From positions 108,702 to 172,701 of the IMG/VR virus record IMGVR_UViG_2974569193_000001: a stretch of 64,000 bases of DNA, one strand, 5' to 3'. This DNA comes from a virus (taxonomy: Duplodnaviria; Heunggongvirae; Uroviricota; Caudoviricetes). The notes under the pieces were generated by a model. That model saw nothing but the letters and a program-made list of their open reading frames with translations. It did no database searches and had not been told where the DNA came from. Below, piece after piece: positions 3,274 through 46,586 of this stretch. Both the position numbers and the translations under genes were made by a program. Within the stretch, counting starts at the first letter, position 1. Each line of letters opens with the position of its first letter.

Positions 3274-5403
3274 TTAGTAGCTGCCGAACTTCAGGTTGAG
3301 AGGGATGGTGCGGATCAGGGCTTCCAGGGCCTTGGTGCAGGCGGTCACCTGCTCGGTCGAGGTCGCATGATTCATGGTGTCGAGGAACTTGCGGATCGGG
3401 TGGTTGGTGTTGGCGTTCAGCTTGGTGTGCCCGTCCTCGAACGTCTTGGTCAGTTCCGAGCGCGGCGGTGCCTTGAACTGGCCCTCCACCTCGTAGAGCG
3501 CCTTGATGAAGGAGCGCTCGCGCTCGGTCCACTCGACGAGACCGGCGTCCAGCAGCGGCTTGAGCGCGCCGAAGTAGGCCGCGACCGGCGACTTCATCCG
3601 CGTCAGGCGGTCGAAGTCGGCCGGGCACTTGCTGATCGCCCGGCTGTAGAAGCTGTAGGACGTCGACGAGGTCGAGAGCTTCTGGACGGCCACGACGCAG
3701 TCATCCAGACCGATGTTGTGCTTGGCCTTGACCGCCGCGTCGATCGCCTCGCGCATGGTCGGGACCTTGGCGTCCTCGACGTGCTTCTGAGCGGTGGGCG
3801 AGGCGATGTAGATGTTCTTGATGCCGTACTTGTTGGCGACGACGAAGACGTCCTCGGCCTTCTTGCGGTACAGGTCCGACGACACCCAGGCCACCGTGCC
3901 GGCAGGGAAGGTGTCGACGCCGGTCACCGCCATCTGCTCGCCCGCGCGCTTGGCCAGGGCCAGACCCCGGATCGGCGGCACGTAGGCGGGCGCGTCCTTG
4001 CTGACCTTGTCGCGGCGCGGGACCTCGCCCTTCAGAGTGGCCACGTCGATGTCCTCGAACTTGGCGGTCGGCAGGGCGCAGTTCCAGAAGGCCTTGTCCT
4101 TGTCGAAGCCCAGCATGAACACGCCGTCTTTCAGGCTCTTGCTCTCCAGGTAGAGGCGCAGGATGCGCGCAAGGCGCCGCGTCTCGCTCTGGGAGAATTC
4201 GCGCTTGGTTGTATCGTCGCGCGACGGGTCAAGCAGGTCGGAGATGTCGCGCAGGACAAGGAAGTGAGTGTCGGTCTTCTGGTTCAGGTCGAGCGTGTTC
4301 TCGATCCGGTAGCCCCAGCGCTCGCGGTGCTGGTCGAACGAGGCCTTGTAGAGGCAGGCCACGCCGGGGAAGGAGATCGTCGTGCCGTCCAGGCCCGTCG
4401 CCGGGTGCTTGGGACGGCTGTTGATGAACGGCGGGCGCAGCTTGTTGTGGGTCGTGAAGAACTCGGTGACCGACTCGATGTCCTTGATCTTGACCCAGAT
4501 CGCCGCCTCGACCTCCTGGCTGATGGACTCGATCGTGTCTTGCAGGACCTTGACCGCCTCGGGCTTGTACTGGATTTCTTCGCGCGACGGAATGGGCTCG
4601 ACCGTGCCCATCGGGACGGTGATCAGCCACTTGCGGCCGTTGTCGTGCGGCAGGTTCAGGCCACCTTTGGCGGCCAGCGGGTAGATGGCGCAGCCCTGGC
4701 GCACGTTCCAGGTCGCCGGCAGTGCCGAGTCCGCATAGGCGGCCCAGACGCCGTTGGCGGCTTCGAACTGCGTCGTGCCCAGCGGGGTCCCCAGGTCGAT
4801 GTTGCTGTCGTACATGGGGATGAAGCCCATGGCGACGTTCTTGACGGCGCGCTCGAAGGCGGCGAAGTCCTTGCTGTCGACCGCGACGGTGACCCGCACG
4901 CCGGCCGGCTCCGAACAGTCCTCGGTGCCCTGAAGCATGACGCGCGGCACACCGCCCTTGCCGATCGCGGCGGTGTAATGGCGCACGACGTCGCCGTCGT
5001 AGCAGGACAGGGCGAATTGGCTGGTGTAGGCGAAGGGGCTCTTGGAGCCCAGGCCGAAGGCGCCGGTGAGATCGTCGGTCTCGTCCTTGTCCGACTCGAA
5101 CAGGGTCGAGTAGAGGTGCATGACCTTGCCGTGGTCCATGCCGGGGCCGTAGTCGCGCACGTAGAATTCGGGGCGCATCTCGTTGGGGACGTGGACGAAG
5201 AAGCTGCCGGGGTAGCCGGCGACGATATGGGCGTCCTGGGCGTTCGAGCAGATTTCGCGGACCAGCGAGCCGATCTTGTCCGAATAGAGCCCGTCGATCA
5301 GCATCTTGAACGCTTTGCCGGAGGCCTTGATCCGGAACTCCTGCTCCTCCTCAACGCCAATGGTTTCGAGGAAGACCGGTTCGGTGGCAAGACGCATAGT
5401 CAA
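3274..5403 (-). CDS. rIIA: rIIA-like protector from prophage-induced early lysis
   Basis: 709 aa. N-terminal GHKL/Bergerat ATPase N-box LVREICSNAQDA as in T4 rIIA; size matches (T4 rIIA about 725 aa). Promoter and SD upstream at 5404..5467. Confidence 0.75.
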   Translation of the reverse strand: MTMRLATEPVFLETIGVEEEQEFRIKASGKAFKMLIDGLYSDKIGSLVREICSNAQDAHIVAGYPGSFFVHVPNEMRPEFYVRDYGPGMDHGKVMHLYSTLFESDKDETDDLTGAFGLGSKSPFAYTSQFALSCYDGDVVRHYTAAIGKGGVPRVMLQGTEDCSEPAGVRVTVAVDSKDFAAFERAVKNVAMGFIPMYDSNIDLGTPLGTTQFEAANGVWAAYADSALPATWNVRQGCAIYPLAAKGGLNLPHDNGRKWLITVPMGTVEPIPSREEIQYKPEAVKVLQDTIESISQEVEAAIWVKIKDIESVTEFFTTHNKLRPPFINSRPKHPATGLDGTTISFPGVACLYKASFDQHRERWGYRIENTLDLNQKTDTHFLVLRDISDLLDPSRDDTTKREFSQSETRRLARILRLYLESKSLKDGVFMLGFDKDKAFWNCALPTAKFEDIDVATLKGEVPRRDKVSKDAPAYVPPIRGLALAKRAGEQMAVTGVDTFPAGTVAWVSSDLYRKKAEDVFVVANKYGIKNIYIASPTAQKHVEDAKVPTMREAIDAAVKAKHNIGLDDCVVAVQKLSTSSTSYSFYSRAISKCPADFDRLTRMKSPVAAYFGALKPLLDAGLVEWTERERSFIKALYEVEGQFKAPPRSELTKTFEDGHTKLNANTNHPIRKFLDTMNHATSTEQVTACTKALEALIRTIPLNLKFGSY

Positions 5404-5467
5404 CTCCAGGGGTTGGGATCAGTGATGTCGCCGATCCTTCTAGCTACCGCCTCCGGTTCTGTCAACA
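5404..5467 (-). promoter_or_regulatory. cassette-type promoter and leader for rIIA
   Basis: Minus strand: GTGTTGACAG, 17 bp, TAGAAG, then a leader ending GGAGTTGACT-ATG. Confidence 0.5.
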
Positions 5468-5719
5468 CACTCGATCCGGCTTTTTGGTCGTGAATCTTGA
5501 CGTTCGCGCGCGGGTCAGGCACAATTTTCGCATGTGGTCAATCCGCAACATCACGTCCGAAGCCTCCCACTCGATTCGCACCTGCACCTCCAAGGACTAC
5601 CCGTGGCCTGAGCGGGGGTCGGAGGGCTGCATTTGCCGCGAACCGGGCGCGCGCCGCGACCGGGACTTCATGTTGCTGGTCGATCGCCATGGCGAGATTC
5701 AATGGTACGCGAGGACGAC

Positions 5720-6495: not shown

Positions 6496-6509
6496 TGTTG
6501 GCGCGAGAC

Positions 6510-6569
6510 TGTTGACACCTCTGATTTTGTGACATAGAAGCCTCCTCGACGACAACGAAGGAGGCTTTC
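6510..6569 (+). promoter_or_regulatory. canonical cassette promoter and leader for the recombinase gene
   Basis: CTGTTGACAC (6512-6517), 17 bp, TAGAAG (6535-6540), CCTCCT-CGACGACAAC-GA-AGGAGG, then CTTTC-ATG. Confidence 0.6.
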
Positions 6570-7196
6570 ATGCCCAAGCGGATCAAAGGCAAGCGCATCG
6601 CCCTGCACCAAGCCAAGGTGCTGGACGCCCAAGAGTTCCAGATGGTTCTCGACCGCGCCGAGCAGGGGGACAACCCGCTGCGCGACCGCGTGCTCTTCAA
6701 GCTCTCTTTCTATTGCGGCATGCGTGTCGCCGAGATCGCCGGCATGGAGTGGCGCAAGCACCTCCTCGACGCCAGCGGCCGGCTGCGTCCCGCCCTCCAC
6801 GTCACCCACGACATCGGCAAGAACGCCGTCGCCCGCCACGTCCCGATCGAGGCGTCGCTGGCGGCTGACCTGCGCGCCCTGCGCAAGGAACGCCCCAACG
6901 ACCGCTTCGTTATCTACCCGCTGCGCGCCTCGATGCGCGGTGGTCCCGAGAAGACCGACGCCAACACCCTGGCCCAGTATATGCGCCGCCTCTATCGTGA
7001 GGTCGGCCTGGACGGGGCCTCGTCGCACTCGGGTCGCCGCACCTTCATCACCGATCTGGCGCGCAAGGCGAACATGGCCGATTGCTCGCTCCGGGACATC
7101 CAGGAGATGGTTGGTCACCGGCGGATCGAAACGACCGGGACCTATATCGAGACGAGCCCCCGCCAGGACCGGCTCGTCAACATGGTCCTGCGATAG
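6570..7196 (+). CDS. tyrosine recombinase, phage-integrase family, catalytic domain only
   Basis: 208 aa. [14 protein letters not shown] ... [14 protein letters not shown] carries the R..HxxR..H..Y catalytic signature. There is no N-terminal arm-binding or core-binding domain. Preceded by a canonical cassette promoter, with SD AGGAGG. Confidence 0.8.
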
Positions 7197-12421: not shown

Positions 12422-12479
12422 GAAAATCTCCAGAGGCGGGAATGTCGCCCTTCATGACACGCCCCGCAGTAGACGTAAA

Positions 12480-12536
12480 GTGTTGACAGACGACACTCGA
12501 TCCCGGTATGTGATCCTTGTACGGTAAGGGAAACCG
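12480..12536 (+). promoter_or_regulatory. cassette-type promoter
   Basis: GTGTTGACAG (12480-12489), 17 bp, GTATGT, then a leader ending GGTAAGGGAAACCG-ATG. Confidence 0.5.
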
Positions 12537-13136
12537 ATGAACGACGACGATTTGGACTGGCAGGATGGCGAGCTTTCGCCGCCCCGCGCTCCGGTCACGA
12601 CCAAGGACATCGCCGATGTCGCCCAGGCTCCGGCTGGCGGGCGGATGGCGGCGATGCGCGAGGCGGGGGATGCGCATCGGCGCGACTTCCTGCTTCTGCG
12701 TGGTCCGCTGGGCGTTGTCCGTCTGTCGCTCGCGCACATCCCAGCGCTGCACGCTCTTTGGCGGGTCTGGACGCGCAAGCGCACGGCCCAGGCCGCCGAC
12801 CCTGGCGCCAGTCTTGCAGAGATCGGCGAGGAGATGAATTTGCCGGCGGCCTCGGTGCGTCCGATGGTCGTCAGCCTGCTCAAGAACCGACTCATCCGGA
12901 CGCGGCGCAGCCACCACGGATGGCAAGGGGTGCGGGCGACCTACTACCCGTCGGCGATCGCCGTCCAGGCCCTGGCCTTGGCGGAGGTCCTCGGTCCGGG
13001 GCATGCGGTTCAGGTGGGGCGTAACGCCTCGGCCTGGGCCAACCGCAGCCTGACCGAACCCGGCAATTTGTTCCAACACGCCGCCTTGTTGCGCGGCGGG
13101 GCTCCCCTCGGGGCCTCCGAGACGGAGTATTCATGA
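12537..13136 (+). CDS. hypothetical protein, possible winged-helix regulator
   Basis: 199 aa. ASLAEIGEEMNLPAASVRPMVVSLLKNRLIRTRRS resembles a MarR/wHTH recognition helix. Cassette-type promoter upstream. Confidence 0.5.
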   Translation: MNDDDLDWQDGELSPPRAPVTTKDIADVAQAPAGGRMAAMREAGDAHRRDFLLLRGPLGVVRLSLAHIPALHALWRVWTRKRTAQAADPGASLAEIGEEMNLPAASVRPMVVSLLKNRLIRTRRSHHGWQGVRATYYPSAIAVQALALAEVLGPGHAVQVGRNASAWANRSLTEPGNLFQHAALLRGGAPLGASETEYS

Positions 13137-17827: not shown

Positions 17828-18469
17828 CTAGGCGCTCCTAAGAGGCTCGAAAGGCTGGTCGCCGGCGATGTAGAGGGGGTGGCGGGGATGGCCGTCTTTG
17901 GACTTGCCAAGGCACTTGACTTCGACCCCGGTGATTTCGGCTTGCTGGACCGCGCCATAGTCTTGATCCTTGAACTCCCCATGGACACCCCAGCCGGCGA
18001 TGACATCGGCCTTGGCGGTGACAGCGTACTCGAAAGCGTGTTGCAGGAACCGGGCATTGAGCGGCCCGATCGGATCAGGCGCCGCCTTCATGATCGCCGG
18101 CGATTTGGACCGGAAGGCGAAGAGGTTGACGACGATGATCCCACCATAGTCGTCGCGGCGCGCAAAGCCCATGCACCGGCGGATGGTGTTGTCGTCCAGG
18201 CGCGCGGTGGCGGTGGACGGGTTGAGCATCATGAAGATCAGGAGCGGCTTGCTCGGGTCCCAGACCCGCATGAGCATGTAGCGAAAGGTCTCGCACTGCG
18301 AGAGGATCGCGGCCTTGATCACGTCGTTCTCGATCACCACGTCGCCATAGACGCCGGTGATCTCCGGATCGTCGATCGACAGTTCAGCGGTCCCGTCCTC
18401 CAGGACCCGCAGGAAGTCGCCCCAGGAGGGCGCGTTCAGTTGTGCGGTGATCGTCGTCATTCCTGACAT
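17828..18469 (-). CDS. DUF1643 family protein
   Basis: LIFMMLNPSTA signature of DUF1643. Start placed at MSGMTTITAQL, directly downstream of an AAGCGTTGACAAAGCC promoter, possibly leaderless. Confidence 0.65.
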   Translation of the reverse strand: MSGMTTITAQLNAPSWGDFLRVLEDGTAELSIDDPEITGVYGDVVIENDVIKAAILSQCETFRYMLMRVWDPSKPLLIFMMLNPSTATARLDDNTIRRCMGFARRDDYGGIIVVNLFAFRSKSPAIMKAAPDPIGPLNARFLQHAFEYAVTAKADVIAGWGVHGEFKDQDYGAVQQAEITGVEVKCLGKSKDGHPRHPLYIAGDQPFEPLRSA

Positions 18470-18500
18470 TTGCCCCGAGAAGGTTGGCTTTGTCAACGCT
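18470..18500 (-). promoter_or_regulatory. second-class promoter AAGCGTTGACAAAGCC, possibly leaderless, for the DUF1643 gene
   Basis: Minus strand: AAGCGTTGACAAAGCC, 17 bp, then GCAAAT followed directly by ATG-TCA-GGA-ATG. Confidence 0.45.
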
Positions 18501-18508
18501 TGGAATCA

Positions 18509-18540
18509 AAAGGGCCGCCCCGCAGGACGGCCCTTTCTCG
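18509..18540 (-). terminator. rho-independent terminator (minus strand)
   Basis: Plus strand reads AAAAGGGCCG-ccccgcagga-CGGCCCTTTCTCG. On the minus strand the 8-bp stem is followed by TTTTGATT. Lies after gene 18756..19013. Confidence 0.55.
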
Positions 18541-24183: not shown

Positions 24184-24635
24184 CTCCTAAAGGCCGGGCG
24201 GATGCGCCGGGCCGGCTTGTTCTCGGTCAATTCCCGCCCGCTGAAGGGCGGGAAGGAAAGCTCGCTGATGCCGTTCTGCCGGATGGCGAACTGGCGCTTC
24301 TTGGTGTCGATCCCGTCGAGGTGCGTGCTGCGCCGCCGCTCGATGAGTTCGAGGTCGACGACGTCACCAAACACCTTGCCGTGGAAAATCTGCCGCCGCG
24401 CCCAGGTGATGGCCGAACCCAGGTGCTCGAAGGTCCTGGTCTTCTCGGCCTCCAGGAGGCTGGCGCCGTCATGGAAGGACGGGTCCACCCACGACAGCTT
24501 GATTTCCCGCGCCGGGAGAGACTTGACCAGGACGTTGATGGGCTCGTAGCCGAAACGCTGGGCAAAGTCGCCCACGTCGTAGCTCTCGATGTCCAGCACC
24601 ACCATGGTGATCGGCTTGGTCGTTACGGACGACAC
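24180..24635 (-). CDS. hypothetical protein
   Basis: 151 aa; GTG start directly after an AAGCGTTGACAAAGCC promoter, possibly leaderless. Confidence 0.5.
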   Translation of the reverse strand: MSSVTTKPITMVVLDIESYDVGDFAQRFGYEPINVLVKSLPAREIKLSWVDPSFHDGASLLEAEKTRTFEHLGSAITWARRQIFHGKVFGDVVDLELIERRRSTHLDGIDTKKRQFAIRQNGISELSFPPFSGRELTENKPARRIRPAFRR

Positions 24636-24665
24636 TATCGATTTCCCTCCGGCTTTGTCAACGCT
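24636..24665 (-). promoter_or_regulatory. second-class promoter AAGCGTTGACAAAGCC, possibly leaderless
   Basis: An identical 16-mer AAGCGTTGACAAAGCC, 17 bp, then ATAGTG, where the GTG is the start codon of gene 24180..24635. Confidence 0.45.
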
Positions 24666-25142
24666 TTAACGCAGGAGCTTGAGCGAGGCCGGCGCGTGGT
24701 ACTTGAACGACGACTCGGTGATCGGTCCAATTCCGACGAAGGTCACGGTGGGCTTGTCGAAAACGGTCCGGCCGGCGTCCACGACCAGGGTCGCGCCAGA
24801 GTAATCGCGGAACCGCTCGTAGAGGGCTTCCAGTTCTTCGTTGGTGCCGGTGTGGAGCGCGATCTTCGCCGCCGACTGCGAGTAGCGGTACTGGCGCGCG
24901 GTCTTCGGAAATCGCTCCATGGCGTCCCACCACGCATGCAGATAGGCGTGTCCAGCCTGGGCGGAGAGCTTGCCGATGTTAAGGGACTTGTCCTCCGGCT
25001 TGCGGCTGCGCTTGGCCACGGTCATCGCGTCGAGCGCTTCCTGGCTGACGATGGCGTAGAGTCGCAGTTCCGCCTTGGGCTTGCCGGCGAAGCAGGCCAT
25101 CAGAAGGTCCCAGGCGTGCAGCCAGTTGTCGATGAATTTCAT
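24666..25142 (-). CDS. pth2: peptidyl-tRNA hydrolase, PTH2 family
   Basis: 158 aa. GKLSAQAGHA (Pth2 GKxAAQxxHA) and C-terminal TLVVDAGRTVF...TFVGIGP...LKLL match Pth2. Confidence 0.7.
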   Translation of the reverse strand: MKFIDNWLHAWDLLMACFAGKPKAELRLYAIVSQEALDAMTVAKRSRKPEDKSLNIGKLSAQAGHAYLHAWWDAMERFPKTARQYRYSQSAAKIALHTGTNEELEALYERFRDYSGATLVVDAGRTVFDKPTVTFVGIGPITESSFKYHAPASLKLLR

Positions 25143-26026: not shown

Positions 26027-26611
26027 CTACTGGGGTTGGGCCGGCGCCGGGATGGCGAAGGCAAGGGATTGTTCGACCAGGGCCAAGAGGTCGGTTACCA
26101 GCTTGGGATTGAGGTCGTCCTCGGTCAGGGCGGCGGCGACGGCGTTGATCCGCGACCACGTGAAGTCCTCGGTCAGGCCAAGGTTGTGGAGGCGCAGCAG
26201 GGTCTCGCCGTGGATCGCCACGACGCCGGAAAGGTCACGCAGGTTGCGCAAGGTCAGCAGCCGCTCGGAAAGCATCTTGATCGCGCTGCCCGAGGGCGCC
26301 AGGAGCAGGCGCATCCAGTCGCCGCCGGGGTCGTCGCCCCGGCGCAGGTCCGGATGGTCCAGGGTCGCGCCCCAGATCACCGCGTGGGCTTTGGCGGCCA
26401 GCGACTGCCGGCGCTTGGCGATGGCCTCGGCTTCCTTGGCTTCGCGCTGGGCGGTCAGGAAGGTGGCGATGATCGCCGAGGGAAAGATCGCCACGAGGAA
26501 GAAGGCGAGGCGGTCGGTCCAGACCGCGTGCGGCGTGATCACGTTCATGGCCGTGCCGATCAGCACCGTGGGATAGATCAGGCCGCCGTGGCGGTGGATG
26601 AACTTGATCAT
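26027..26611 (-). CDS. membrane protein
   Basis: 194 aa with two N-terminal transmembrane segments. Preceded by a cassette promoter; a GGCCTCCG/CGGAGGCC hairpin in the leader contains the SD. Confidence 0.55.
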   Translation of the reverse strand: MIKFIHRHGGLIYPTVLIGTAMNVITPHAVWTDRLAFFLVAIFPSAIIATFLTAQREAKEAEAIAKRRQSLAAKAHAVIWGATLDHPDLRRGDDPGGDWMRLLLAPSGSAIKMLSERLLTLRNLRDLSGVVAIHGETLLRLHNLGLTEDFTWSRINAVAAALTEDDLNPKLVTDLLALVEQSLAFAIPAPAQPQ

Positions 26612-26674
26612 GAAAAGGGCCTCCGGCGTTGTCGTCGGAGGCCCTTCTAGCGAGTCGGTGTCAGGCTGTCAACA
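26612..26674 (-). promoter_or_regulatory. cassette promoter with a hairpin leader
   Basis: GTGTTGACAG, 17 bp, TAGAAG, then GGCCTCCG-ACGACAACG-CCGGAGGCC (an 8-bp stem that sequesters the SD), then CTTTTC-ATG. Confidence 0.55.
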
Positions 26675-26678
26675 CATG

Positions 26679-27293
26679 TCAGCCAGCCGCAGCCACCAAC
26701 TTCTCGATGCGGTTGAAGCCCAGTTCGAGCCGGCCCCAGAAGGCGCTCGGCACGTGCGGCTTGACGACCTCGGTGAAGCGCGCGCGCTCCTTGAGGTACA
26801 TCTTGGCCATGCCCAGGTGAGGCGCCTGGGTCGCCGGGTCCTTGATCGACGCCTCGACGTTGGCGATCCGGTCGGCCAGCTTCAGGATGCAGGCCTCGGG
26901 GTTCTCGCCGAGCTTGCGATAGATGTCCTCGTTGCGGGACTTGCGGTTGGGACCGATGCCCGAGACCGCCCAGACCAGCGCCGCGACGCGGTCGCCGAAC
27001 TTGTCCTCGATCATCTGACGGCGGGCCTCGGGCGTCATGTCGAGGTGGGTGTCCTCGATCACGTCGTGCAGCTTGGCCGCCGCCGTCCAGGTGAAGCCGG
27101 CATAGCCGAAATCGTCCAGGATGCGCTCGACCTTCTGGAGGTGGTAGAGGTAGGGCTGGCCGGCGTACTGCTGATCGCCGTGCGCGGCGATGGCGAACTT
27201 CGTCGGGTCCTCCTGGTGGAAGCCGCCGGGCGCGCCGACGTCCGCCATCAGGTTGGCCAGTTGGTCGGGATCGGACAGGGGCGTGTCGGTCAT
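26679..27293 (-). CDS. HD-domain small alarmone hydrolase ((p)ppGpp hydrolase, SpoT/Mesh1-like)
   Basis: 204 aa. AAHGDQQYAGQPYLYHLQKV ... LHDVIEDT matches the RelA/SpoT hydrolase HD motif (H..GQ.R..G.PY..H ... LHD..EDT). Confidence 0.75.
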   Translation of the reverse strand: MTDTPLSDPDQLANLMADVGAPGGFHQEDPTKFAIAAHGDQQYAGQPYLYHLQKVERILDDFGYAGFTWTAAAKLHDVIEDTHLDMTPEARRQMIEDKFGDRVAALVWAVSGIGPNRKSRNEDIYRKLGENPEACILKLADRIANVEASIKDPATQAPHLGMAKMYLKERARFTEVVKPHVPSAFWGRLELGFNRIEKLVAAAG

Positions 27294-29784: not shown

Positions 29785-31017
29785 CTAGCCCTTCACGCAG
29801 AGGACTTGCTTCAGGGTGTGGACGATGTCCACGAGGTCCTTCTGCGCCTCCATGACCGCGTCGATGTCCTTGTAGGCCATCGGGATTTCGTCGATCACGC
29901 CGATGTCCTTGCGGCACTCGACGCCTTCGGTCGCCTTGATCTGGTCTTCCAGCGTGAAGGCCGCCTTGGCGGCGGTGCGCGACATGGTCCGGCCCGCGCC
30001 GTGCGAGCACGAGCAGAACGAGTCGGCGTTGCCCTTGCCGCGCACGATGTAGGACTTGGCCCCCATCGAGCCGGGGATGATGCCGAACTGGTCCTTCTGA
30101 GCCGACACCGCGCCCTTGCGGGTCACGAAGACCCACTCGTCGAAGTGGAACTCCTTCTGGACGTAGTTGTGGTGGCAGTTCACCGCTTCCTTGTCCGTCT
30201 TGAAGGGCGGCAGGCCCGAGGCGCGCATGGCGTCCAGGACCCGGATCATCATCATCTCGCGGTTGATCCGCGCGAAGTCCTGGCCCCAGGCGACGGCTTC
30301 CACGTAGTCGTAGAATTCCGGCTCGCCTTCCGACAGCCACGCGAGGTCCTTGTCGAGCGGCTTCTGGCCGTCCCGACGCAGCATCATCTCCTTGGCCTTC
30401 TCGATGAAGATACGACCGATGGTGTTGCCGACGCCGCGCGAGCCCGAGTGGAGCATCACCCAGACGCGCTGGTCCTCGTCGAGGCAGACCTCGATGAAGT
30501 GGTTGCCGCCGCCCAGCGTGCCCAGTTGGACGACGCTGTTGGCGTTCTTGAGGGCCTTGTACTTGTCGCAGAGCTTCTCGAACCGAGCCTCCAGGCCCGA
30601 GTCGACCCACTTGCGCATGATCGAGTTCGGGATGCCGCTGCGCCCGTTCCAGCCGCCCGACGGACCCGGCCCGCCGTGCGGGACGGCGTGCTCGATCAGC
30701 GAGCGCAGCTTGGCGAGGCTGTCGGGCAGGTCCGAGGCCGTCAGCGAGGTGCGCACGGCCATCATGCCGCAGCCGATGTCCACGCCCACGGCCGCCGGGA
30801 TGATGGCGCCCTTGGTCGGGATCACCGAGCCCACGGTCGAGCCGATGCCCATGTGGACGTCCGGCATCAGGGCCACGTGCGAATGGATGAACGGCAGGGC
30901 GGCGAGGTTGTGCGCCTGCACCTGGGCGGGTTGTTCGAAGGTCACGCCCCGGACCCAGGCCTTGATCACCCCGCCGTTCCAGCCGGTGATCTCTTCGTAT
31001 TGGGTCTCGGCGGTCAT
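29785..31017 (-). CDS. rtcB: RNA-splicing ligase RtcB
   Basis: 410 aa. RtcB hallmarks: HSHVALMPDVHMGIGSTVGSVIP, GGGNHFIE, HSGSRG, NCHHNYV, SCSHGAGR. Cassette promoter upstream. Confidence 0.9.
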   Translation of the reverse strand: MTAETQYEEITGWNGGVIKAWVRGVTFEQPAQVQAHNLAALPFIHSHVALMPDVHMGIGSTVGSVIPTKGAIIPAAVGVDIGCGMMAVRTSLTASDLPDSLAKLRSLIEHAVPHGGPGPSGGWNGRSGIPNSIMRKWVDSGLEARFEKLCDKYKALKNANSVVQLGTLGGGNHFIEVCLDEDQRVWVMLHSGSRGVGNTIGRIFIEKAKEMMLRRDGQKPLDKDLAWLSEGEPEFYDYVEAVAWGQDFARINREMMMIRVLDAMRASGLPPFKTDKEAVNCHHNYVQKEFHFDEWVFVTRKGAVSAQKDQFGIIPGSMGAKSYIVRGKGNADSFCSCSHGAGRTMSRTAAKAAFTLEDQIKATEGVECRKDIGVIDEIPMAYKDIDAVMEAQKDLVDIVHTLKQVLCVKG

Positions 31018-31081
31018 GTGCTCCTCGCTGCCGTTGTCGTGATTTACGACTTTTGACCACGCCCTTCGTCGTCTGTCAACA
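31018..31081 (-). promoter_or_regulatory. cassette-type promoter for rtcB
   Basis: Minus strand GTGTTGACAG with TTGACA at about 31074-31079. Confidence 0.45.
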
Positions 31082-31364
31082 CACCTTCGACCGCTTCGAT
31101 CTGGATTTGCAGCGTCGTCCTGGCGATGCTCAGCGGCGGGAGTTGCTCACCGACAAGCTTCATGTCCCCCAGGGCGTAGAGCAGGGTGTCGTAGAACTCG
31201 GCCTCCGAGCCCCCGACGTTGAGCCGCTCCTGGATATGGGTGATCCGGGCCTGGAGGACGCGGGCGCGATCATCGTTGGGCAGGAGCGAGGCCTCGACCT
31301 GGGCGATCGCCTCGACGGTGTCTCGCAGCATGCTGCGGTAGGTGTTCTGACGCGGGGTACTCAT
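31044..31364 (-). CDS. hypothetical protein
   Basis: Trimmed to MSTPRQNTYRS... (107 aa). The R/G/P-rich N-terminus of ORF 31044..31613 is rejected. Start overlaps the TGA of the small ORF upstream as ATGA. Confidence 0.5.
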   Translation of the reverse strand: MSTPRQNTYRSMLRDTVEAIAQVEASLLPNDDRARVLQARITHIQERLNVGGSEAEFYDTLLYALGDMKLVGEQLPPLSIARTTLQIQIEAVEGVLTDDEGRGQKS

Positions 31365-33421: not shown

Positions 33422-33705
33422 CAGGAAGCGAGCCCGCGCTGCTTCAAGGCGACGATCTGCTCGATCTCCTTGAGGATGTGCTCAGACAGGCGGTCGGTGC
33501 GCTCCTTGATGCCGGCGGGGACGCCGATCTTGCATTGGCCGATCTCGTGCAGGCGATCGGAGACCGCCTTCAGATCGATCAGGGTGTCGCGGATCAGCAC
33601 GTCGGCGAGGCTCAGGGCCTCGGACTGGAGCGCGGCGATGCGCTGGGCGGTGGTGATCTCGTCGCCCGTCGTCACAACGGCGAGCTTGGTCTGGGCAGCG
33701 GTCAA
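33421..33705 (-). CDS. hypothetical protein
   Basis: 94 aa; TTG start after a cassette promoter and leader. Confidence 0.5.
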   Translation of the reverse strand: MTAAQTKLAVVTTGDEITTAQRIAALQSEALSLADVLIRDTLIDLKAVSDRLHEIGQCKIGVPAGIKERTDRLSEHILKEIEQIVALKQRGLAS

Positions 33706-33766
33706 ATCGGGTCTCCTTGTTGTCGTCGGGCGTGACTTCTAGCCGGCGTCCGTGGGGCTGTCAACA
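33706..33766 (-). promoter_or_regulatory. cassette promoter and leader
   Basis: GTGTTGACAG, 17 bp, CTAGAAG, then CGCC-CGACGACAAC-AAGGAGACC, then CGAT-TTG start. Confidence 0.55.
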
Positions 33767-34296
33767 CTTTCGCTCACGGGCACGGCACCATAGTGCGCGA
33801 CCAGCACGAGCCGCGCGCCGCAGGCCACGAGCGAGCCCTGGGCGTTGTAGATGAGCCGCCCGGCTTCCTGGCCGTTGGCGTCGAGGATCGCGGCGGCATG
33901 CGCGTAGGTCGGCTTGCCGCCCTTGCCCTTCTGGATGCGGATCGGCGGAGCGTTGGTCTGGTGCTTGGTGTTGCGGTCGATGACCTGCCGGTTGACGTTG
34001 AGCACGATCATGCCGCGCTCGATCTTCGGCAGCGGCGCGGGCTCCTCGGGTGGAAGCGGCATCCAGCCAATGACGTCGTCAATGGTGTAGGCGTCGCGCC
34101 CAGCCATTTTCCAGCAGATGTAAGGATCGTCGTCCTCGTCGATCTGCCAGTCGACCAGTTGTGCCGTGTACATGCGTCCGTGCTGGGTCTTCACCAGCAC
34201 CCAGTCGGAGGCCTTGGCTCCCCAGGGGTCCTCTTGCTTGATCTCGGGCGGATCAGCATGCGGGTGACGCCACAGGGGCCAGGACGGATTGTTCAT
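33739..34296 (-). CDS. hypothetical protein
   Basis: Start at MNNPSWPLW with SD AGGAGG. The upstream R/G-rich part of ORF 33739..34383 is rejected. Confidence 0.55.
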   Translation of the reverse strand: MNNPSWPLWRHPHADPPEIKQEDPWGAKASDWVLVKTQHGRMYTAQLVDWQIDEDDDPYICWKMAGRDAYTIDDVIGWMPLPPEEPAPLPKIERGMIVLNVNRQVIDRNTKHQTNAPPIRIQKGKGGKPTYAHAAAILDANGQEAGRLIYNAQGSLVACGARLVLVAHYGAVPVSESVDSPTDAG

Positions 34297-34304: not shown

Positions 34305-35204
34305 CTACCAGCCAAACTTGGTGGCGCAGACCGGGCCGATGCCGGCATCGATCGAAGCGTGATTGGTCAGTTCCCGGCCGCAACAGGCGCAGGAGCCGGT
34401 GCGCTGACCGTAAGCGATGGCGGCGGCGTGGGGATCGGCCGCCAGGGCGAGGATTTCGGCTTCCTGCTCGGTGGTGCAGTCGCGCACCTTGAGGAACTTG
34501 CCGTTCATTACCTTGCCCATGTACACGCCCTCCACGGTGCGCACGTAGATGGCGCCGGCGTTGGTGCTGTCCATGGCGGCGGGCTTGAACTTGTAGCCGG
34601 CCAGTCGCAGGGTGATGTTCTTCAGGCCCGAACCCTTGGCGTGGAAGAAGGCTTCTTCCAGCTTGGCGAGCGAGATCACCGGCGCGGCGGCTTCGCGGGC
34701 GACCCGCTCGGCTTCGCGCTGGATCGCGCGCTTCTTGTCCTCGGCCGCGAGCCGTTCGACGGTCGCCAGTTGCTTCTCGGTCAGGTGACCGAACCGTTCC
34801 ACGGCCTGAAGCATCTGATTGGCGAAGTCGAAACGCGGCGCGCGCTCGACCATCCAGGCCGTCGCCTCGGGGTGCGCCAGCTTCCAGGCGGCGCGTTGCT
34901 GCTGGAGATCGAACTGGACCTGGGCCTTTTTCTTGTCGGCGTTGGCGCGGCGGCGGGCGCGTTCCTCGGGCGAGGTCTTGCGCACGAACTTGCCCTTGCC
35001 CTTACAGACGAAGCACTGGCGGCCGTACTGCGACATGCCGCGATAGGTGCCCGTGCCCCGGCATTTGGGGCAAAGCTCGATCCACTCGGCCGGCGGCGGG
35101 GTCTCGTCGACGAAATCGACGCCCGCCTCCATGGGCTCACCCGGTTGGGTTTCCCGGACCACCGGCTCGGTGATCAGTTCATCCATGTCAGCGAAAAGGT
35201 CCAC
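34305..35204 (-). CDS. zinc-ribbon protein with DUF6011-like C-terminus
   Basis: 299 aa. N-terminal CPKCRGTG...CFVCKGKG; C-terminal CACCGRELTNHASIDAGIGPVCATKFGW. GTG start with SD GGAG. Confidence 0.55.
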   Translation of the reverse strand: MDLFADMDELITEPVVRETQPGEPMEAGVDFVDETPPPAEWIELCPKCRGTGTYRGMSQYGRQCFVCKGKGKFVRKTSPEERARRRANADKKKAQVQFDLQQQRAAWKLAHPEATAWMVERAPRFDFANQMLQAVERFGHLTEKQLATVERLAAEDKKRAIQREAERVAREAAAPVISLAKLEEAFFHAKGSGLKNITLRLAGYKFKPAAMDSTNAGAIYVRTVEGVYMGKVMNGKFLKVRDCTTEQEAEILALAADPHAAAIAYGQRTGSCACCGRELTNHASIDAGIGPVCATKFGW

Positions 35205-35265
35205 GGCGGGTCTCCATCAGCAGGTGATGGAGCCCTTCTAGGCCTCTCGACCTAGCGTGTCAACA
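35205..35265 (-). promoter_or_regulatory. cassette-type promoter
   Basis: GTGTTGACAC, 17 bp, TAGAAG, then a leader ending GGAGACCCGCC-GTG. Confidence 0.5.
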
Positions 35266-35288
35266 CTCTCGCGCCAACAAAATGTCGG

Positions 35289-38161: not shown

Positions 38162-38526
38162 CAGGCCGACACCTTGCCCAGTTGCTTTTCCAGTTCGGCG
38201 CGCAGTTCGGCGTCGGTCAGGCCCAGGCGTTCCTTCATGAACGTCAGGGCGTCGGCCGCGTTATCGAAGGAGCGGGTCTCCCGATCGGTACTGTCGCGCA
38301 GGCCCCGGATTTCGGTCACGCCCCAGAAGGTCGCCCAGAGGGCCACGACCAGGGCCGCCAGCGCCGCGAAGAACGAGCCACCGAACTGGTGCGCATCGAC
38401 GCGCTCGACGAGATCGGCTGCGGCCCAGGTCGCGGCGAGCACCGCCACGGTGCCCAGATGCAGCAGGGCGGTCTTGCGGGTGTAGGTCGGGGTCACCGCC
38501 AGGGTGAACTTGTCGCTGGTCTCCAA
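38161..38526 (-). CDS. membrane protein
   Basis: 121 aa, two transmembrane helices; TTG start after a cassette promoter and leader. Confidence 0.5.
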   Translation of the reverse strand: METSDKFTLAVTPTYTRKTALLHLGTVAVLAATWAAADLVERVDAHQFGGSFFAALAALVVALWATFWGVTEIRGLRDSTDRETRSFDNAADALTFMKERLGLTDAELRAELEKQLGKVSA

Positions 38527-38590
38527 GAGAGGTCTCCTCTGTCGTTGTCGTCGAGGTGCTTATAGGCGGTGGTCAACCGGCTGTCAACAC
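38527..38590 (-). promoter_or_regulatory. cassette promoter and leader
   Basis: GTGTTGACAG, 17 bp, TATAAG, then CACCT-CGACGACAAC-GACAGAGGAGACC, then TCTC-TTG. Confidence 0.55.
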
Positions 38591-38592
38591 TC

Positions 38593-40011
38593 TCACGCCA
38601 GCTTTACGCCGACCGTGCCCGCGACCTTGGCTAGGGCCTCGCGCTGCGCCTTGATGCGCTTGTCGAAGGCGTCGAGCGAGGCCATCATGTCGCTCTCCAG
38701 CTTGTCCAGCGCCGCCCATTGCTCGACGACCGCCTTGGCGGCCTTGTCCTGGGCTTCGTTGCGCTCGGGACCATAGACCCGCTCACGCAGTTCAGCGACC
38801 CAGGCGCGGGGCAAGCCCAGTTCCTTGGAGACCTTCTCGTCGGTCATGTCGCCGCCATAGCACTGGCGGTTGGTGTCGTAGTGGATATCCAGAGCTTCGA
38901 GGATGCGGCGGTTTTCGGCTGGCGTCGCCGCGCGCGGCGGCTCGGCGGTCTGGACCGGGGGCGAGGTCTTGGTGGCGGTTGCGGGCATGGCGATCTCCGG
39001 AATAGGGGTTTCGATATGGGCTTCGATGGTGGTCGGATTGTTCTTCTTGGCCAGCCGCGTCTTGGCGGCGGCCTTTTGGCGCTCGGAGCGCTCTTCCTTG
39101 GTCATGGCGGCCCAGTAGGCGCGCGGACCCGCACCGCGCTTCTCGCGCTGCTCAGCGATCTTGGCCTGCTTCTTGGCCTTGCGGGTGGCGTGGCCCTTCT
39201 TGGCGAGTTCCGACTTCTGCTCGGGCGTCAGCGACTCGTGATGGGCGCGCAGATGGGCGCCGTCGAAAAGCTTGCGCAGGTCGACCTTGCCGTCGGCTTC
39301 CTGTTCCTTGCGCACGATGGCGTTGGCCTCCTCGATAATGGCGTTGAGGAACTTGTCGGACACGTAGTGCTCGATCTCCTCGGCCAGCACGTCGGGCTCG
39401 GTCTTCAACTGCTTGAGCATCCGGCGCACGGACTCCAGGAGGGGAGCCGGCGGGGCGTCGACACCGCACTCGCGGAAGAACTTGCCCGCGTACACCGTCA
39501 GGATGCCCTTGATCCGGTTCTCGCGGGGATAGCCCCCGGTGGTTTTGCGGATGGCGCCGCGCACGATCTTGTCGGCCGTGTCGGGATCGATCTCCGCCAC
39601 ATTGGCCAGCATCTTGCCCACGGCCTCATCTTCGAGGACGAAATCGCCAGCCTTGCCCGGCTCGACGAGTTCCAGAGGCTTGATCGCGTTGGCCACCATC
39701 TGGATCGCCGTGTCGATGGCGATGTCGTCGCGTTCGGCGGCGGGGGCGGAGTGTACCTTGGCGTTGCCGTGGCAGGAGGGGCAGACGTCCTTGTTGCGAT
39801 TGGCACCGATCGCCCAGCCGCGCTTGCGGAATATCTTGGAGGCCAGTTCCGCCGGGATGTGCGGGCTGCGCGTCGTCACCGGGACGGCGTCATCGCGCTC
39901 GCATTTGCGGCAGACGGCCACGACATGGTTCTGGCGTTTGTTGGGGTCGGACACCAAGGGTCGCATCTCGACCCGGAACGACTCCCGCGTGGCGAGTTTG
40001 GTCGTGCTCAT
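38593..40011 (-). CDS. hypothetical protein with N-terminal zinc-ribbon (CRKCERDD...CPSCHGN)
   Basis: 472 aa; K/E/R-rich central region. The antisense ORF 38719..40095 is an artefact. Confidence 0.55.
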   Translation of the reverse strand: MSTTKLATRESFRVEMRPLVSDPNKRQNHVVAVCRKCERDDAVPVTTRSPHIPAELASKIFRKRGWAIGANRNKDVCPSCHGNAKVHSAPAAERDDIAIDTAIQMVANAIKPLELVEPGKAGDFVLEDEAVGKMLANVAEIDPDTADKIVRGAIRKTTGGYPRENRIKGILTVYAGKFFRECGVDAPPAPLLESVRRMLKQLKTEPDVLAEEIEHYVSDKFLNAIIEEANAIVRKEQEADGKVDLRKLFDGAHLRAHHESLTPEQKSELAKKGHATRKAKKQAKIAEQREKRGAGPRAYWAAMTKEERSERQKAAAKTRLAKKNNPTTIEAHIETPIPEIAMPATATKTSPPVQTAEPPRAATPAENRRILEALDIHYDTNRQCYGGDMTDEKVSKELGLPRAWVAELRERVYGPERNEAQDKAAKAVVEQWAALDKLESDMMASLDAFDKRIKAQREALAKVAGTVGVKLA

Positions 40012-40340
40012 TTCTTGCCTCTCGGACGGTTGGCCTCAAACCACGCATGCCACTCGGCCTTGGTCATCCAAGGCTGGGTGCGGCGGGCGTTGTAGAGGGC
40101 GAGGCCCTCCTCGGTCACGGTGTAGAATTTCGAGCCGCGCTCCATGTGCGGCATGCGCTGCTCGGACTTGGCGAGCCCGCGCTTTTCGAGCTTGGCCAGG
40201 GTCGCCGAATGGTGCGAGCCATTCGAGCCGCCGACATCCATGGTGCGGTGCCGGCGGATCGGTTCATCTCGGAAGGATGGGATCAGGCACCCCAGGACCT
40301 CCCAGTCGCGGTCGGTCAGCGGGGACAGGCGTCGGGTCAT
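40008..40340 (-). CDS. winged-helix DNA-binding protein
   Basis: Start at MTRRLSPLTDRDWEVLG. HSATLAKLEKRGLAKSEQ...SKFYTVTEEGLALY is PadR/MarR-like. Cassette promoter upstream. Confidence 0.5.
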   Translation of the reverse strand: MTRRLSPLTDRDWEVLGCLIPSFRDEPIRRHRTMDVGGSNGSHHSATLAKLEKRGLAKSEQRMPHMERGSKFYTVTEEGLALYNARRTQPWMTKAEWHAWFEANRPRGKK

Positions 40341-40400
40341 CGCGGTCTCCAGGTTGTCGTCAATCCGACATCTAGGAGGCTTTTCCGAACCTGTCAACAC
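40341..40400 (-). promoter_or_regulatory. cassette-type promoter for the winged-helix regulator gene
   Basis: Minus strand GTGTTGACAG with TTGACA at about 40393-40398. Confidence 0.45.
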
Positions 40401-40402
40401 AA

Positions 40403-40618
40403 TCACGCCAGCGAGGAGGTAAACACCACGGCGCCGACGATCAGGCAGTAGAGGCCGCCGACGATCGAGGCGCCGCGCAGCCAGCCACGCGCCTGGGTAT
40501 AGAAGGTCCGATCATTTCCGGACGCGCGGGCGATCACCTGGGGCAGGATGTCGTCTGCCAGATAGAGGCCCAGGGCGCTGACCAGCATCACCGTGATCAT
40601 GATACCCGAGAGGTTCAT
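40403..40618 (-). CDS. small membrane protein
   Basis: C-terminal 71 aa of ORF 40403..40807 (MNLSGIMITVMLVSALGLYL...), with ATGA overlap. Confidence 0.45.
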   Translation of the reverse strand: MNLSGIMITVMLVSALGLYLADDILPQVIARASGNDRTFYTQARGWLRGASIVGGLYCLIVGAVVFTSSLA

Positions 40619-41719: not shown

Positions 41720-42024
41720 TGACGGATCACCTCGATGGTTTGGATCGAGAATTCGACGTGGCCGTGATCGCAGTCACCCGCACCCAGCAAGATGGCCTCC
41801 AGCGCCTCACGGGTCCCTCGCTCCCAGGCGTCGCGCGCGGCGCGGGCTTCCGAGGGGGTGGCGGTGGGGTTTCGATCGGGCATCTTGAAGCGGCGGGAGA
41901 TCACGCTGTTCAGCTTGGCGGAGGTCTCCTCGGCGTGGGCCGAGTCGGCGAACGCGGCGAGGTTGGTGATGCTCCCGGCATCGTAGTCGCGGTCATCCAT
42001 GACCAGGATGTAGACGGTGTCCAC
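41716..42024 (-). CDS. hypothetical protein
   Basis: 102 aa; GTG start after a cassette promoter and leader. Confidence 0.5.
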   Translation of the reverse strand: MDTVYILVMDDRDYDAGSITNLAAFADSAHAEETSAKLNSVISRRFKMPDRNPTATPSEARAARDAWERGTREALEAILLGAGDCDHGHVEFSIQTIEVIRQ

Positions 42025-42084
42025 GGTGGGCCTCCTTCGTTGTCGTCGGAGCCTACCTAGACTGGCGCGAGTGTGTTGTCAAGC
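42025..42084 (-). promoter_or_regulatory. cassette promoter and leader
   Basis: GCTTGACAAC, 17 bp, TAGGTA, then GGCTC-CGACGACAAC-GA-AGGAGG, then CCCACC-GTG. Confidence 0.55.
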
Positions 42085-42222
42085 GGGCGTGCAGCGCATG
42101 AGGAGCACGGCCACGAGGAGCAACACGGCGCTCACGCCAAACAGGCGAAAGCTCGGCACGGCGATCGAGAACAACAGCCCTAGGAGGCCCAGAAGCAGTA
42201 GGATGAGAATCAGGACGGCCAT
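42076..42222 (-). CDS. small membrane peptide (48 aa), not in the ORF track
   Basis: MAVLILILLLLGLLGLLFSIAVPSFRLFGVSAVLLLVAVLLMRCTPA. ATG lies 2 nt after the upstream stop; its 3' end overlaps the promoter of the next gene. Confidence 0.3.
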
Positions 42223-43357: not shown

Positions 43358-43626
43358 CTCTGCTTTTCCAGCGCGGCCCAGGTGACGTCGATCGTCACGC
43401 CCAGCGTGGTGTGCTCATCGGGGAAGCCCTCGGGCAGGTCGATCCCAAACTCCTCCTCCAGCGACATCGCCAGATCGACGAGGTCAAGGCTGTCGAAGCG
43501 CAGGTCTTCCATGAGACGAAGCCCCTTGTGGTAGTCATCCAACGCAATATGCGACTCGCTCATCATGTGCGCGAACTCGTAGACCGCGATCTGGACTTCA
43601 GACCATGTGGTGCTCGTATCGACCAA
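43354..43626 (-). CDS. acpP: acyl carrier protein
   Basis: 90 aa. DSLDLVDLAMSLEEEFGIDLPE holds the phosphopantetheine-attachment Ser in a DSL motif. TTG start with SD AAGGGG after a cassette promoter. Confidence 0.65.
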   Translation of the reverse strand: MVDTSTTWSEVQIAVYEFAHMMSESHIALDDYHKGLRLMEDLRFDSLDLVDLAMSLEEEFGIDLPEGFPDEHTTLGVTIDVTWAALEKQR

Positions 43627-43685
43627 GGACTTCCCCTTCTGCTGCTGCCGGGCGGTTCTAGCTAAGCTTCACTATGGTGTCAACG
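43627..43685 (-). promoter_or_regulatory. cassette promoter with a variant leader, for the acyl carrier protein gene
   Basis: GTTGACAC, 17 bp, TAGAAC, then CGCC-CGGCAGCAGC-AG-AAGGGG, then AAGTCC-TTG. Confidence 0.5.
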
Positions 43686-43687
43686 TA

Positions 43688-46584: not shown

Positions 46585-46586
46585 CA

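Follow-up and report, generated by a model that had tools for sequence, protein, structure and literature searches.

Small phage RNAs that pair with the ribosome-binding site (RBS) or leader of phage transcripts and block their expression include P22 sar, P1/P7 c4, P4 CI RNA and lambda OOP, and of these P1 c4 and P4 CI have as their targets short sequences that are repeated in a leader. They are cis-encoded or processed from the same operon, act on one operon each and serve mostly immunity or lysogeny decisions. In T4, early phage mRNAs are inactivated post-transcriptionally as a class, via their Shine-Dalgarno (SD) regions, by the endoribonuclease RegB and the translational repressor RegA. 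Here we describe a repeated promoter-leader cassette in a 64,000-nucleotide stretch of phage DNA (the window), which is identical to Caulobacter phage CcrBL10 (MH588544.1/NC_048045.1, 220,934 bp), a phiCbK-like member of the Dolichocephalovirinae, genus Poindextervirus. It seems fairly probable that these cassettes are early promoters for the host RNA polymerase (RNAP) which endow their transcripts with a common 5' untranslated region (UTR), targeted in turn by a phage antisense small RNA (sRNA) controlling the whole class.

As far as the cassette as such is concerned, the closest described elements are the PeSL cassettes of the T4-type phages RB49 and phi1 (Arbiol 2010, PMC2839356; Comeau 2014, PMC4122927), of which many near-identical copies of ~75-100 bp stand before small genes of unknown function, each with a strong early promoter for the host sigma factor, a 3' end formed by SD and start codon, and a stem-loop over the -35/-10 region that is able to stop or insulate upstream transcription. 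The CcrBL10 cassettes share with them the trait of a repeated strong early promoter plus SD before small genes of unknown function in a plastic region of the genome. As for the RNA, the alphaproteobacterial alpha-r14 family (NfeR1) and AbcR1/2 are trans-acting sRNAs of ~100-120 nt, composed of hairpins and a terminator, in which an unpaired C/U-rich anti-SD motif silences many mRNAs by RBS occlusion (PMC10746234). No described precedent for the promoters or the predicted RNA of CcrBL10 was found in the literature, with the proviso that coverage was limited, several papers on the phiCbK group being in subscription journals. Rfam at its gathering threshold gave no match in the window, and in the phiCbK genome paper it gave only transfer RNAs (tRNAs) as functional RNA. 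Although work on the Caulobacter cell-cycle model has phiCbK as its standard phage, no description of its promoters and temporal control was found in the literature searched.

Architecture and distribution of the cassettes

Positions refer to the window (CcrBL10 record position minus 108,701) unless given as record positions. Genome-wide counts cover the whole CcrBL10 genome, assembled from six pieces: base counts of the -35 and -10 are for 28 cassettes, while spacing and leader-position counts are for the 22 that bear the leader. Comparison regions were taken from phiCbK, CcrRogue (Rogue), CcrColossus (Colossus) and the Brevundimonas phages Bajun and Kabachok.

The repeated promoter-plus-leader cassette noticed in an initial annotation of the window is confirmed. 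TTGACA is found at all 19 positions listed there, and the extended -35 GTGTTGACAG does occur in 12 exact copies, not all on the minus strand as had been reported but nine on the minus and three on the plus strand; with at most one mismatch there are 16 matches in the window against 2.6 expected, and a match at 10009 is intragenic and is no promoter. The leader core CGACGACAAC is found exactly at nine window sites, every one of them promoter-linked, to which TGACGACAAC at 40353 can be added, and 34 times with at most one mismatch (7 expected). A chance origin had been considered implausible, which is borne out by the 11 window matches of the composite TTGACA-N16-18-TA-N4-N5-8-GACGACA, compared with 0.00 in 100 shuffles. 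The claim of a near-fixed distance to the start codon also holds, since TTGACA lies 57-62 nt upstream of it in 21 of the 22 leader-bearing cassettes; measured to annotated starts, the distance is 54-68 nt. Every copy in the window is co-directional with the adjacent gene, and 16 of the 27 intergenic gaps of at least 40 bp contain a cassette. The conserved block is longer than first described and reads YTGGCGYGAGAGTG-TTGACA(G)-N17 (variable)-sCTAGAAG-(CCTCCT)C-GACGACAAC-0-4 nt-GGAGG-5-8 nt-start. The Class I cassettes of the window are as follows:

6496..6572 (+): exact leader; stands before the tyrosine recombinase gene; copy singled out in the initial annotation, with upstream element 6496-6511, -35 TTGACA 6512-6517, spacer 6518-6534, -10 TAGAAG 6535-6540, discriminator CCTCCTC 6541-6547, leader GACGACAAC 6548-6556, SD GGAGG 6560-6564 and ATG 6570
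26609..26688 (-): exact leader; a GGGCCTCCG/CGGAGGCCC hairpin followed by TTTTC, terminator-like for read-through RNA; 3' half identical to that of the copy at record 187,129
31015..31095 (-): heads rtcB; weak -10 TCAAAA; leader variant CACGACAAC
33703..33780 (-): exact leader; promoter overlaps the 3' end of the gene upstream
38524..38603 (-): exact leader
40338..40413 (-): leader TGACGACAAC; heads a winged-helix DNA-binding protein gene
42022..42098 (-): 'inverted' type, exact leader; upstream element reverse-complemented within the spacer, TTGACA-ACACACTCGCGCCAGTC-TAGGTA
46524..46598 (-): leader variant TGACGACACG; 11-bp inverted repeat across the -10, not kept in phiCbK
48031..48107 (-): exact leader
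52855..52932 (-): leader variant GGACGACGAC; heads an operon with the phiCbK tgrL orthologue as third gene
56376..56452 (+): exact leader; at a point of divergent transcription
58336..58413 (+): exact leader
61434..61509 (+): exact leader; -10 and leader enclosed by an 11-bp stem, GGGGCCTCCTC/GAGGAGGCCCC (z = -6.6 for the read-through fold); strongest predicted duplex with the sRNA, -33.9 kcal/mol

Not all the sites originally listed are copies of this cassette. The one at 8242 belongs to another promoter class (TGTCATGAATC-TTGACA, no leader), that at 56358 is the mirror of a divergent minus-strand -35, and those at 5465, 12483, 35263 and 43683 have the promoter without the leader. Across the genome, exact GACGACAAC is found in 28 copies (1.5 expected by composition), 20 of which are located 5-9 nt past a -10, all within record 115,213-201,404; the terminal repeat and the modules for structure, lysis and replication have no promoter-linked copy. 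There are about 28 cassettes in the 114-202 kb region of CcrBL10, each heading a gene block whose members are mostly small and of unknown function. The regulon initially proposed thus stands in part: genes for the tyrosine recombinase, RtcB and acyl carrier protein do come first behind cassette promoters, as does that for the winged-helix protein, but the DNA replication module (record 80-108 kb) has no cassette copy and the PE-PGRS ('PEP-domain') gene at 8306 is under another promoter class.

A host origin of the cassette was rejected on a search of 185,579 bacterial species genomes, in which the composite motif had a single match, in a Leptospirales metagenome-assembled genome, consistent with chance; in IMG/VR it was found in Karma and Rogue genomes only. 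Presence of the motif in related phages had been named as a check on the initial proposal, and the genome-wide and relative searches revealed the cassette architecture in phiCbK, Bajun (TTTCTTGGCGCGAGAGTG-TTGACA...TACAnC...CGACGAC..) and Kabachok (same architecture), and a variant in Colossus, TTGACR-N10-11-TTTCTT-TACAAG-cctcct-TGACGATCA(A/C).

What kind of promoter is this? The consensus of Caulobacter RpoD (sigma-73) is TTGaCgS / GCtANAWC (PMC8144410). The cassette -35 is TTGACA in 27 of 28 cases and TTGACG in the other, with G or C as seventh base in 19, which fits the RpoD hexamer TTGAC(a/g), and the spacer of 17 bp (19/22) or 18 bp (3/22) is within the 16-18 bp of RpoD promoters. The -10 hexamer has T at position 1 in all 28 and A at position 2 in 27, A at positions 4 and 5 in 23 and 18, respectively, and a last base that is G in 18, C in five and T in two; the base just before it is C in 16. 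Compared with the RpoD 8-mer there are 0-4 mismatches, the last base being mostly G, and the features shared with the consensus are TTGAC, C-T-A-n-A-A and a G/C last base. The initial view of these promoters as E. coli-like rather than host-like is not supported, because TTGACA fits both consensuses, the -10 sCTAGAAG ends in T in 2/28 only and a scan for E. coli-type promoters, which requires T at the last -10 position, detected none of the cassettes. A reading of the upstream element as a sigma-54 promoter (TGGCAC-N5-TTGC, with GG and GC 10 bp apart) was rejected upon inspection of TGGCGYGAGAGTGTTG, which has TGTT where TTGC is needed. An idea of the timing comes from phiCbK, where 41% of phage genes are 'early' and tgrL (gp216), the gene of a phage XRE factor, is highly expressed with a peak at 15 min or before (PMC10688885). 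This gene, located by its published cloning primer, is the third behind the cassette at phiCbK 156,557, which is orthologous to that at window 52,916. The cassettes are thus very probably early promoters used by host RNAP, and the list of them, even without any sRNA, defines early transcription units of some 30 sequenced phages and corrects the E. coli-type reading.

The leader and a predicted antisense RNA

The G of GACGACAAC is 6-7 nt past the -10 in 19 of the 22 leader-bearing cassettes, which is the expected +1, while the distance from leader to SD is looser (0-6 nt). In the cassette at CcrBL10 190,540/phiCbK 185,967, the leader stays at the promoter, the SD being 36 nt further downstream with a hairpin of ~30 nt in between. 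Identity over 14 orthologous CcrBL10/phiCbK pairs is 100% for the -35, 96% for the leader, 77% for the -10, 74% for the discriminator and 60% for the spacer, compared with 62% for coding sequences (60% at third codon positions). Since spacers are as diverged as neutral sites whereas the blocks are conserved, the blocks are under selection and are not merely recent copies. The cassette UTR contains 6% T, against 17% genome-wide. A T7-type primase site was considered for the leader and rejected because it gives no reason for the promoter linkage. As to pairing of the leader with 16S rRNA, we take the 7-nt match to helix 34 to be not significant and the 3' tail presumably ends before the leader could pair.

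A putative partner for the leader came from the eight GACGACAAC copies that are not promoter-linked, of which seven are in coding DNA, while the eighth (record 52,184, minus strand) is intergenic, in a region transcribed on the plus strand. This copy is part of an sRNA-like gene, outside the window, which has counterparts in other phages:

CcrBL10 record 52,095-52,226 (+): unannotated sRNA-like gene with promoter, 5' stem-loop, anti-leader/anti-SD seed and terminator
phiCbK NC_019405 52,921-53,051: counterpart
Colossus JX100810 69,437-69,583: counterpart
Bajun ON529858 138,779-138,923: counterpart
Kabachok 5328-5462 of the comparison piece: counterpart

The promoter of this locus, TTTTTCTGGCTCTTATGTG-TTGACA-N17-GCTACAAC, is of the same type as those of the cassettes, and the predicted RNA of ~96 nt (record 52,131-52,226, +) would start at 52,131 and consist of a 5' stem-loop, an unpaired linker GUUGUCGUCA (52,176-52,185) and a strong intrinsic terminator ending at 52,226. 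Its predicted fold has an energy of -61.7 kcal/mol (z = -5.95) and leaves the seed GUUGUCGUCA unpaired. The leader and this linker are exact reverse complements of each other, and the GCCUCUG next to the linker adds pairing with the SD, so that, for example, GACGACAACG-A-GGAGGC and GCCUCU-G-CGUUGUCGUC form a duplex of 10 + 6 bp with about -30 to -34 kcal/mol. Located between the last tRNA gene and phoH, the locus is present in 26 phiCbK-like genomes; it is annotated at most as 'terminator', as in phiCbK, Karma and Swift. In six aligned genomes, 82% identical overall, the -35, the -10 (GCTAMAAC, perfect host consensus) and CTG-CGTTGTCGTCAG are invariant, and the predicted unit of TTGACA-N17-(GC)TACAAC, a 12-16-bp GC stem and then GUUUCGU is conserved. 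Changes in the stems are wobble or compensatory and the consensus fold leaves the seed unpaired. With the 13 start regions of the window that bear the leader, the seed region forms duplexes of -28.7 kcal/mol on average, as against -17.2 with the 92 other start regions (Mann-Whitney p = 5e-8) and -15.9 +/- 0.9 kcal/mol for shuffled seeds. From such features we consider it likely that a genuine sRNA gene exists here.

That the leader and this RNA belong together is further supported by their co-variation between phage lineages. At the syntenic spot, 3' of the tRNA cluster and 5' of phoH, there are promoter-to-terminator units in three more lineages. The Colossus unit (GAGAG-TTGACA-N17-TATATC ... 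GGGCCUCC-UGAUCGUCA-AG plus terminator) has the seed UGAUCGUCA, preceded by an anti-SD CCUCC, which is the complement of the Colossus-specific leader UGACGAUCA. Bajun (UCUCCUUUCAUCC-GUCGUCAG plus terminator) and Kabachok (GGUCCUCC-GUCGUCA-AG plus terminator) both have an anti-SD plus GUCGUCA. Colossus differs from phiCbK in two base pairs with both partners altered (C:G to U:A; A:U to C:G), the change on the leader side being present in about 7-13 cassettes and that on the sRNA side in the only seed. Contiguous complementarity to the leader alone is 9.8 nt for the phiCbK type (6-7 nt with the leaders of other lineages) and 7.7 nt for Colossus (4.6-5.5 nt with others), and cognate sets of sRNA and leaders have the best mean duplex energy in four of five columns (CcrBL10, phiCbK, Bajun and Colossus). 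At the level of sequence, co-variation of seed and leader is clear for the phiCbK type versus the Colossus type. Colossus and phiCbK have the same host but different leaders, so that the partner by which the leader is constrained goes with the lineage of the phage rather than with the host. A covariance model built from five phiCbK-type sequences and run on 44 kb ranks the Bajun candidate first (24.2 bits, E = 0.004).

These data outline a model in which unmodified host RNAP with its housekeeping sigma factor (RpoD, sigma-73) would read the cassettes early, as suggested by their sequence and one experimental anchor. Judging by the spacing, transcription would start from the G of GACGACAAC, with the consequence that all cassette mRNAs would share a U-poor, unstructured 5' UTR of ~25 nt. 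One phage-encoded sRNA may then target the leader, a step to which the observed complementarity and co-variation point, and the leader would be invariant because it is the common target of that sRNA. Pairing would occlude the RBS of every early transcript and probably hasten its decay, repression being the favoured direction of the effect, and promoter and antagonist would form an incoherent feed-forward loop by which early expression becomes a pulse. In a secondary layer, RNA reading through from upstream would fold into a hairpin over the SD, which RNA started at the cassette cannot do. Of the two roles initially offered for the leader, that of a shared post-transcriptional or translation-control signal is the one strengthened, by a conserved sRNA-like gene whose seed is exactly complementary to leader plus SD and co-varies by lineage, while nothing found points to a sigma factor, an anti-sigma factor or a repressor protein.

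The secondary layer is suggested by folding statistics. RNA that runs from spacer to start codon folds with a mean z of -1.7 in CcrBL10 and in phiCbK (p about 0.002), with z < -2 in 7/22 and 8/18 cassettes, respectively. The 5' arm of the hairpin, clear in ~40% of cassettes, is in the discriminator, -10 or spacer, all of which are upstream of +1, and pairs with the SD region. RNA from the predicted +1, by contrast, has less structure than its shuffled versions in three phages (z = +0.5 to +0.9, p = 0.002-0.02). The arms co-vary within cassettes, as seen from an arm-permutation test in which swapping the 3' halves among cassettes weakened the fold from -9.35 to -8.12 kcal/mol (P < 0.001 for all cassettes together, 0.007-0.026 for the single genomes). 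Since the register of the SD varies, no consensus structure emerged when 61 cassettes were aligned with MAFFT and folded with RNAalifold, and these statistics therefore come from folding of each cassette and the arm-permutation test instead of an alignment fold. A U-tract is seen in only about three cassette copies, one of which is annotated as a terminator in phiCbK.

Besides the leader, the upstream element TGGCGYGAGAGTG is a conserved block in its own right, which can also be found reverse-complemented within the 17-nt spacer (TTGACA-ACACTCTCGCGCCAACA-TAGAAG). Inverted copies are located at:

window 42082 (-)
CcrBL10 record 173962, 182339, 187129 and 190540
phiCbK 169599, 183481 and 185967
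Bajun 4286, with upstream-element copies on both sides of the -35 as a palindrome

Orthologous genes may have either the inverted or the upstream type. This use of two orientations suggests a protein-binding site or a read-through hairpin.

Several findings weigh against control of the class by one sRNA. Six promoters of the class have no leader, which is thus not needed for promoter function, and the orientation-flexible upstream element is unexplained by the sRNA model. The sRNA promoter itself resembles the early class, so that the timing of a shut-off is not explained by promoter class alone. Some start regions without a cassette form strong duplexes too (e.g. 48405, at -33.1 kcal/mol). 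As for the other lineages, the seeds of Bajun and Kabachok reach no further than the GACGAC core and the SD, the energy column of Kabachok is a tie (on 5 UTRs only) and the covariance model ranks Kabachok fourth (E = 0.046) and Colossus sixth (E = 0.16), with plain terminators scoring alike. CcrSC, tried as a fifth lineage, was dropped since no clear sRNA counterpart is found at the syntenic position.

Could the leader do without a partner? It might be a cis module tuned to the host, i.e. an initial transcribed sequence that aids escape of RNAP from a very strong promoter and/or an unstructured, U-poor 5' UTR by which the SD is kept accessible, and the sRNA-like locus would then be irrelevant. 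This would be consistent with a leader that begins at the predicted +1, with its low T content and with the weak structure of cassette-started RNA in three phages, and it is known that initial transcribed sequences can shift promoter output >10-fold and that productive yield correlates with purine content (PMC5961368). Such general properties, however, need no exact 9-10-mer kept at 96%, Colossus and phiCbK have different leader variants in the same host, and CG/CA steps near +6, which slow promoter escape in E. coli, are represented in the leader by CA at +6/+7. It would also fail to account for the antisense copy, which is conserved, matched to the phage lineage and placed between promoter and terminator, and we consider this possibility unlikely. 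The same antisense gene is not predicted if the conserved blocks are DNA operators for a phage (or host) repressor or activator, the candidates being the upstream element next to the -35 and/or the inverted repeat CCTCCTCG...CGAGGAGG together with the leader that it flanks. That the upstream element always adjoins TTGACA/TTGTCA, either 5' of the -35 or reverse-complemented in the spacer (and as a palindrome at Bajun 4286), and that several early genes encode helix-turn-helix proteins would both be in accord with an operator, but the -35 hexamers are perfect, which speaks against activator dependence, and the leader has no dyad of its own. As an account of the system this is quite improbable, although an operator function of the upstream element can coexist with the sRNA model.

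A further scenario, to which we give very little credence, is that these are PeSL-like mobile regulatory cassettes, alike through spread and homogenising recombination, and that the sRNA-like locus is the fossil of an inverted cassette kept by gene conversion. The architecture of strong early promoter, overlapping stem-loop and SD is indeed similar (PMC2839356, PMC4122927). Types are swapped at orthologous loci (CcrBL10 182339 and 188502 versus phiCbK 178464 and 185967), two non-orthologous copies have identical 3' halves, and CcrBL10/Rogue indel gaps touch a cassette in 8/22 cases compared with 2.2 expected at random (P = 0.0015). Breakpoints limited to gene boundaries would, however, already give about 6/22 by our estimate, and the corresponding figure for CcrBL10/phiCbK, 9/38 versus 4.3 expected (P = 0.03), is not clearly above this gene-boundary null either. 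Neutral-like divergence of the spacers next to conserved blocks speaks for selection rather than recent copying. Moreover, only ~19 nt are common to the sRNA locus and the cassettes, and yet in four lineages the locus has kept a promoter of its own, a terminator, an unpaired seed and a structured 5' domain in which changes are wobble or compensatory.

On balance, we lean towards functional pairing of sRNA and leader as the best explanation of the invariance of the leader. The wider notion that a single sRNA of phiCbK-like phages silences or otherwise co-regulates a temporal class of ~20 transcription units, leader and seed having co-evolved across the Dolichocephalovirinae, we regard as evenly balanced. 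If true, it would represent regulon-wide, RNA-based switching of a phage gene class and, to our knowledge, the first example of a common leader that marks a whole class of phage genes for one antisense RNA. The sRNA model would offer a simple mechanism for the pulse of early genes seen by RNA-seq, and, for the control of genes in GC-rich alphaproteobacteria, a compact toolkit of promoter, leader and sRNA.

Other promoters and features

Several promoters of the window are related to the cassettes but have no GACGACAAC leader:

5395..5481 (-): same promoter type (GTGTTGACAG-N17-TAGAAG) without leader; heads rIIA
12467..12539 (+): same extended -35 (GTGTTGACAG), -10 TATGTG, without leader
35202..35279 (-): full upstream element, -35 and -10, without leader; own CTCCATCA/TGATGGAG hairpin over the SD
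43624..43699 (-): same promoter type, GACGACAAC being replaced by the T-free leader GGCAGCAGCAG; stands before the acyl carrier protein gene
18458..18512 (-): variant promoter AAGCG-TTGACA-AAGCC; ATG 6 nt past the -10
24633..24677 (-): variant promoter AAGCG-TTGACA-AAGCC; annotated GTG start within the -10 hexamer

The mRNA from 18458..18512 is probably leaderless, because of the position of its ATG, and for 24633..24677 the in-frame ATG at 24605 is a more likely start than the annotated GTG. Directly 5' of the cassette of the tgrL-orthologue operon there is a strong intrinsic terminator with a 12-bp stem and a T-run (52942-52969, -). In the divergent region 56314-56449, a minus-strand promoter TTGTCA-N17-TAGGGT, the -35 of which mirrors the plus-strand TTGACA at 56358, heads the gp192/GcrA-like operon. 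There are also unusually long unannotated gaps in this tightly packed region (36066-36581, 40867-41191, 49824-50105 and 31365-31552), the first of which holds an open reading frame (ORF) of 163 aa (36098-36589, -) that corresponds by position to the annotated Rogue gene gp188.

A second repeated promoter class has (T)GTCGTGAATC adjoining TTGAC(A/T/G), again without the GACGACAAC leader, and is found in the structural, lysis and replication modules:

window 5497 and 8242 (+): second promoter class
record 29917, 32669, 46945, 52274, 53902, 55922, 71578 and 79456 (+): second promoter class
record 85831 and 92906 (-): second promoter class

This is probably a middle/late class. A GcrA site was considered here and rejected, the context of GANTC (CcrM) being TGAATCT/AGATTCA and not the published YGAKTCK, and the reported positions (-20 or +2 to +30) being unmatched as well. 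In Colossus and Kabachok, most promoters have a conserved (G/A)TTTCTT immediately 5' of the -10 TACAAG, and Colossus has another promoter subclass, GAGAG-TTGACA-GACGGCG; these TTTCTT-type and GAGAG-type promoters may be further classes. Finally, a small conserved ORF (MSK(T/S)YRQFV...) stands directly behind a promoter, upstream of or within the tRNA cluster, and ends in a terminator (CcrSC 2640-2850 of the comparison piece; CcrBL10 record ~50,465). It is possibly a leaderless micropeptide gene.

Comparison with described systems

Despite their similar layout, the PeSL cassettes and those of CcrBL10 have no sequence relation and belong to other phage families and hosts. The region upstream of the promoter is AT-rich in PeSLs, whereas the upstream element of CcrBL10 is GC-rich (CTGGCG..GAGTG) and orientation-flexible, and only a subset of cassettes has ATTTT or TTTTC further upstream. 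Only the ~40% of CcrBL10 cassettes mentioned above have a clear hairpin, few of them with a U-tract, and recombination at the cassettes is not clearly above the gene-boundary null. Conversely, PeSLs have neither an invariant +1 to +9 leader nor a matching antisense RNA.

Among known RNA families, ar14 (Rfam RF02344) is the only one that aligns with the phage RNA over its full length, with 20.8 bits compared with a gathering threshold of 58.8. The phage RNA is not called a member because the part that aligns with the 5' hairpin of ar14 coincides with the phage promoter and lacks conservation in phiCbK. The mode of action proposed here would nevertheless be akin to that of NfeR1, with the difference that the phage seed joins to the anti-SD a 9-10-nt anti-leader specific to the transcripts of the phage itself. 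RegB and RegA of T4 differ in being protein effectors that act on GGAG or RBS motifs, with neither a dedicated leader nor an antisense RNA involved. Among phage systems, sar, c4, CI RNA and OOP come closest. Compared with these, the predicted RNA of CcrBL10 is encoded 60-150 kb away from its targets, in a giant phage of virulent type, and would address ~20 separate transcription units via a leader that is built into their promoters.

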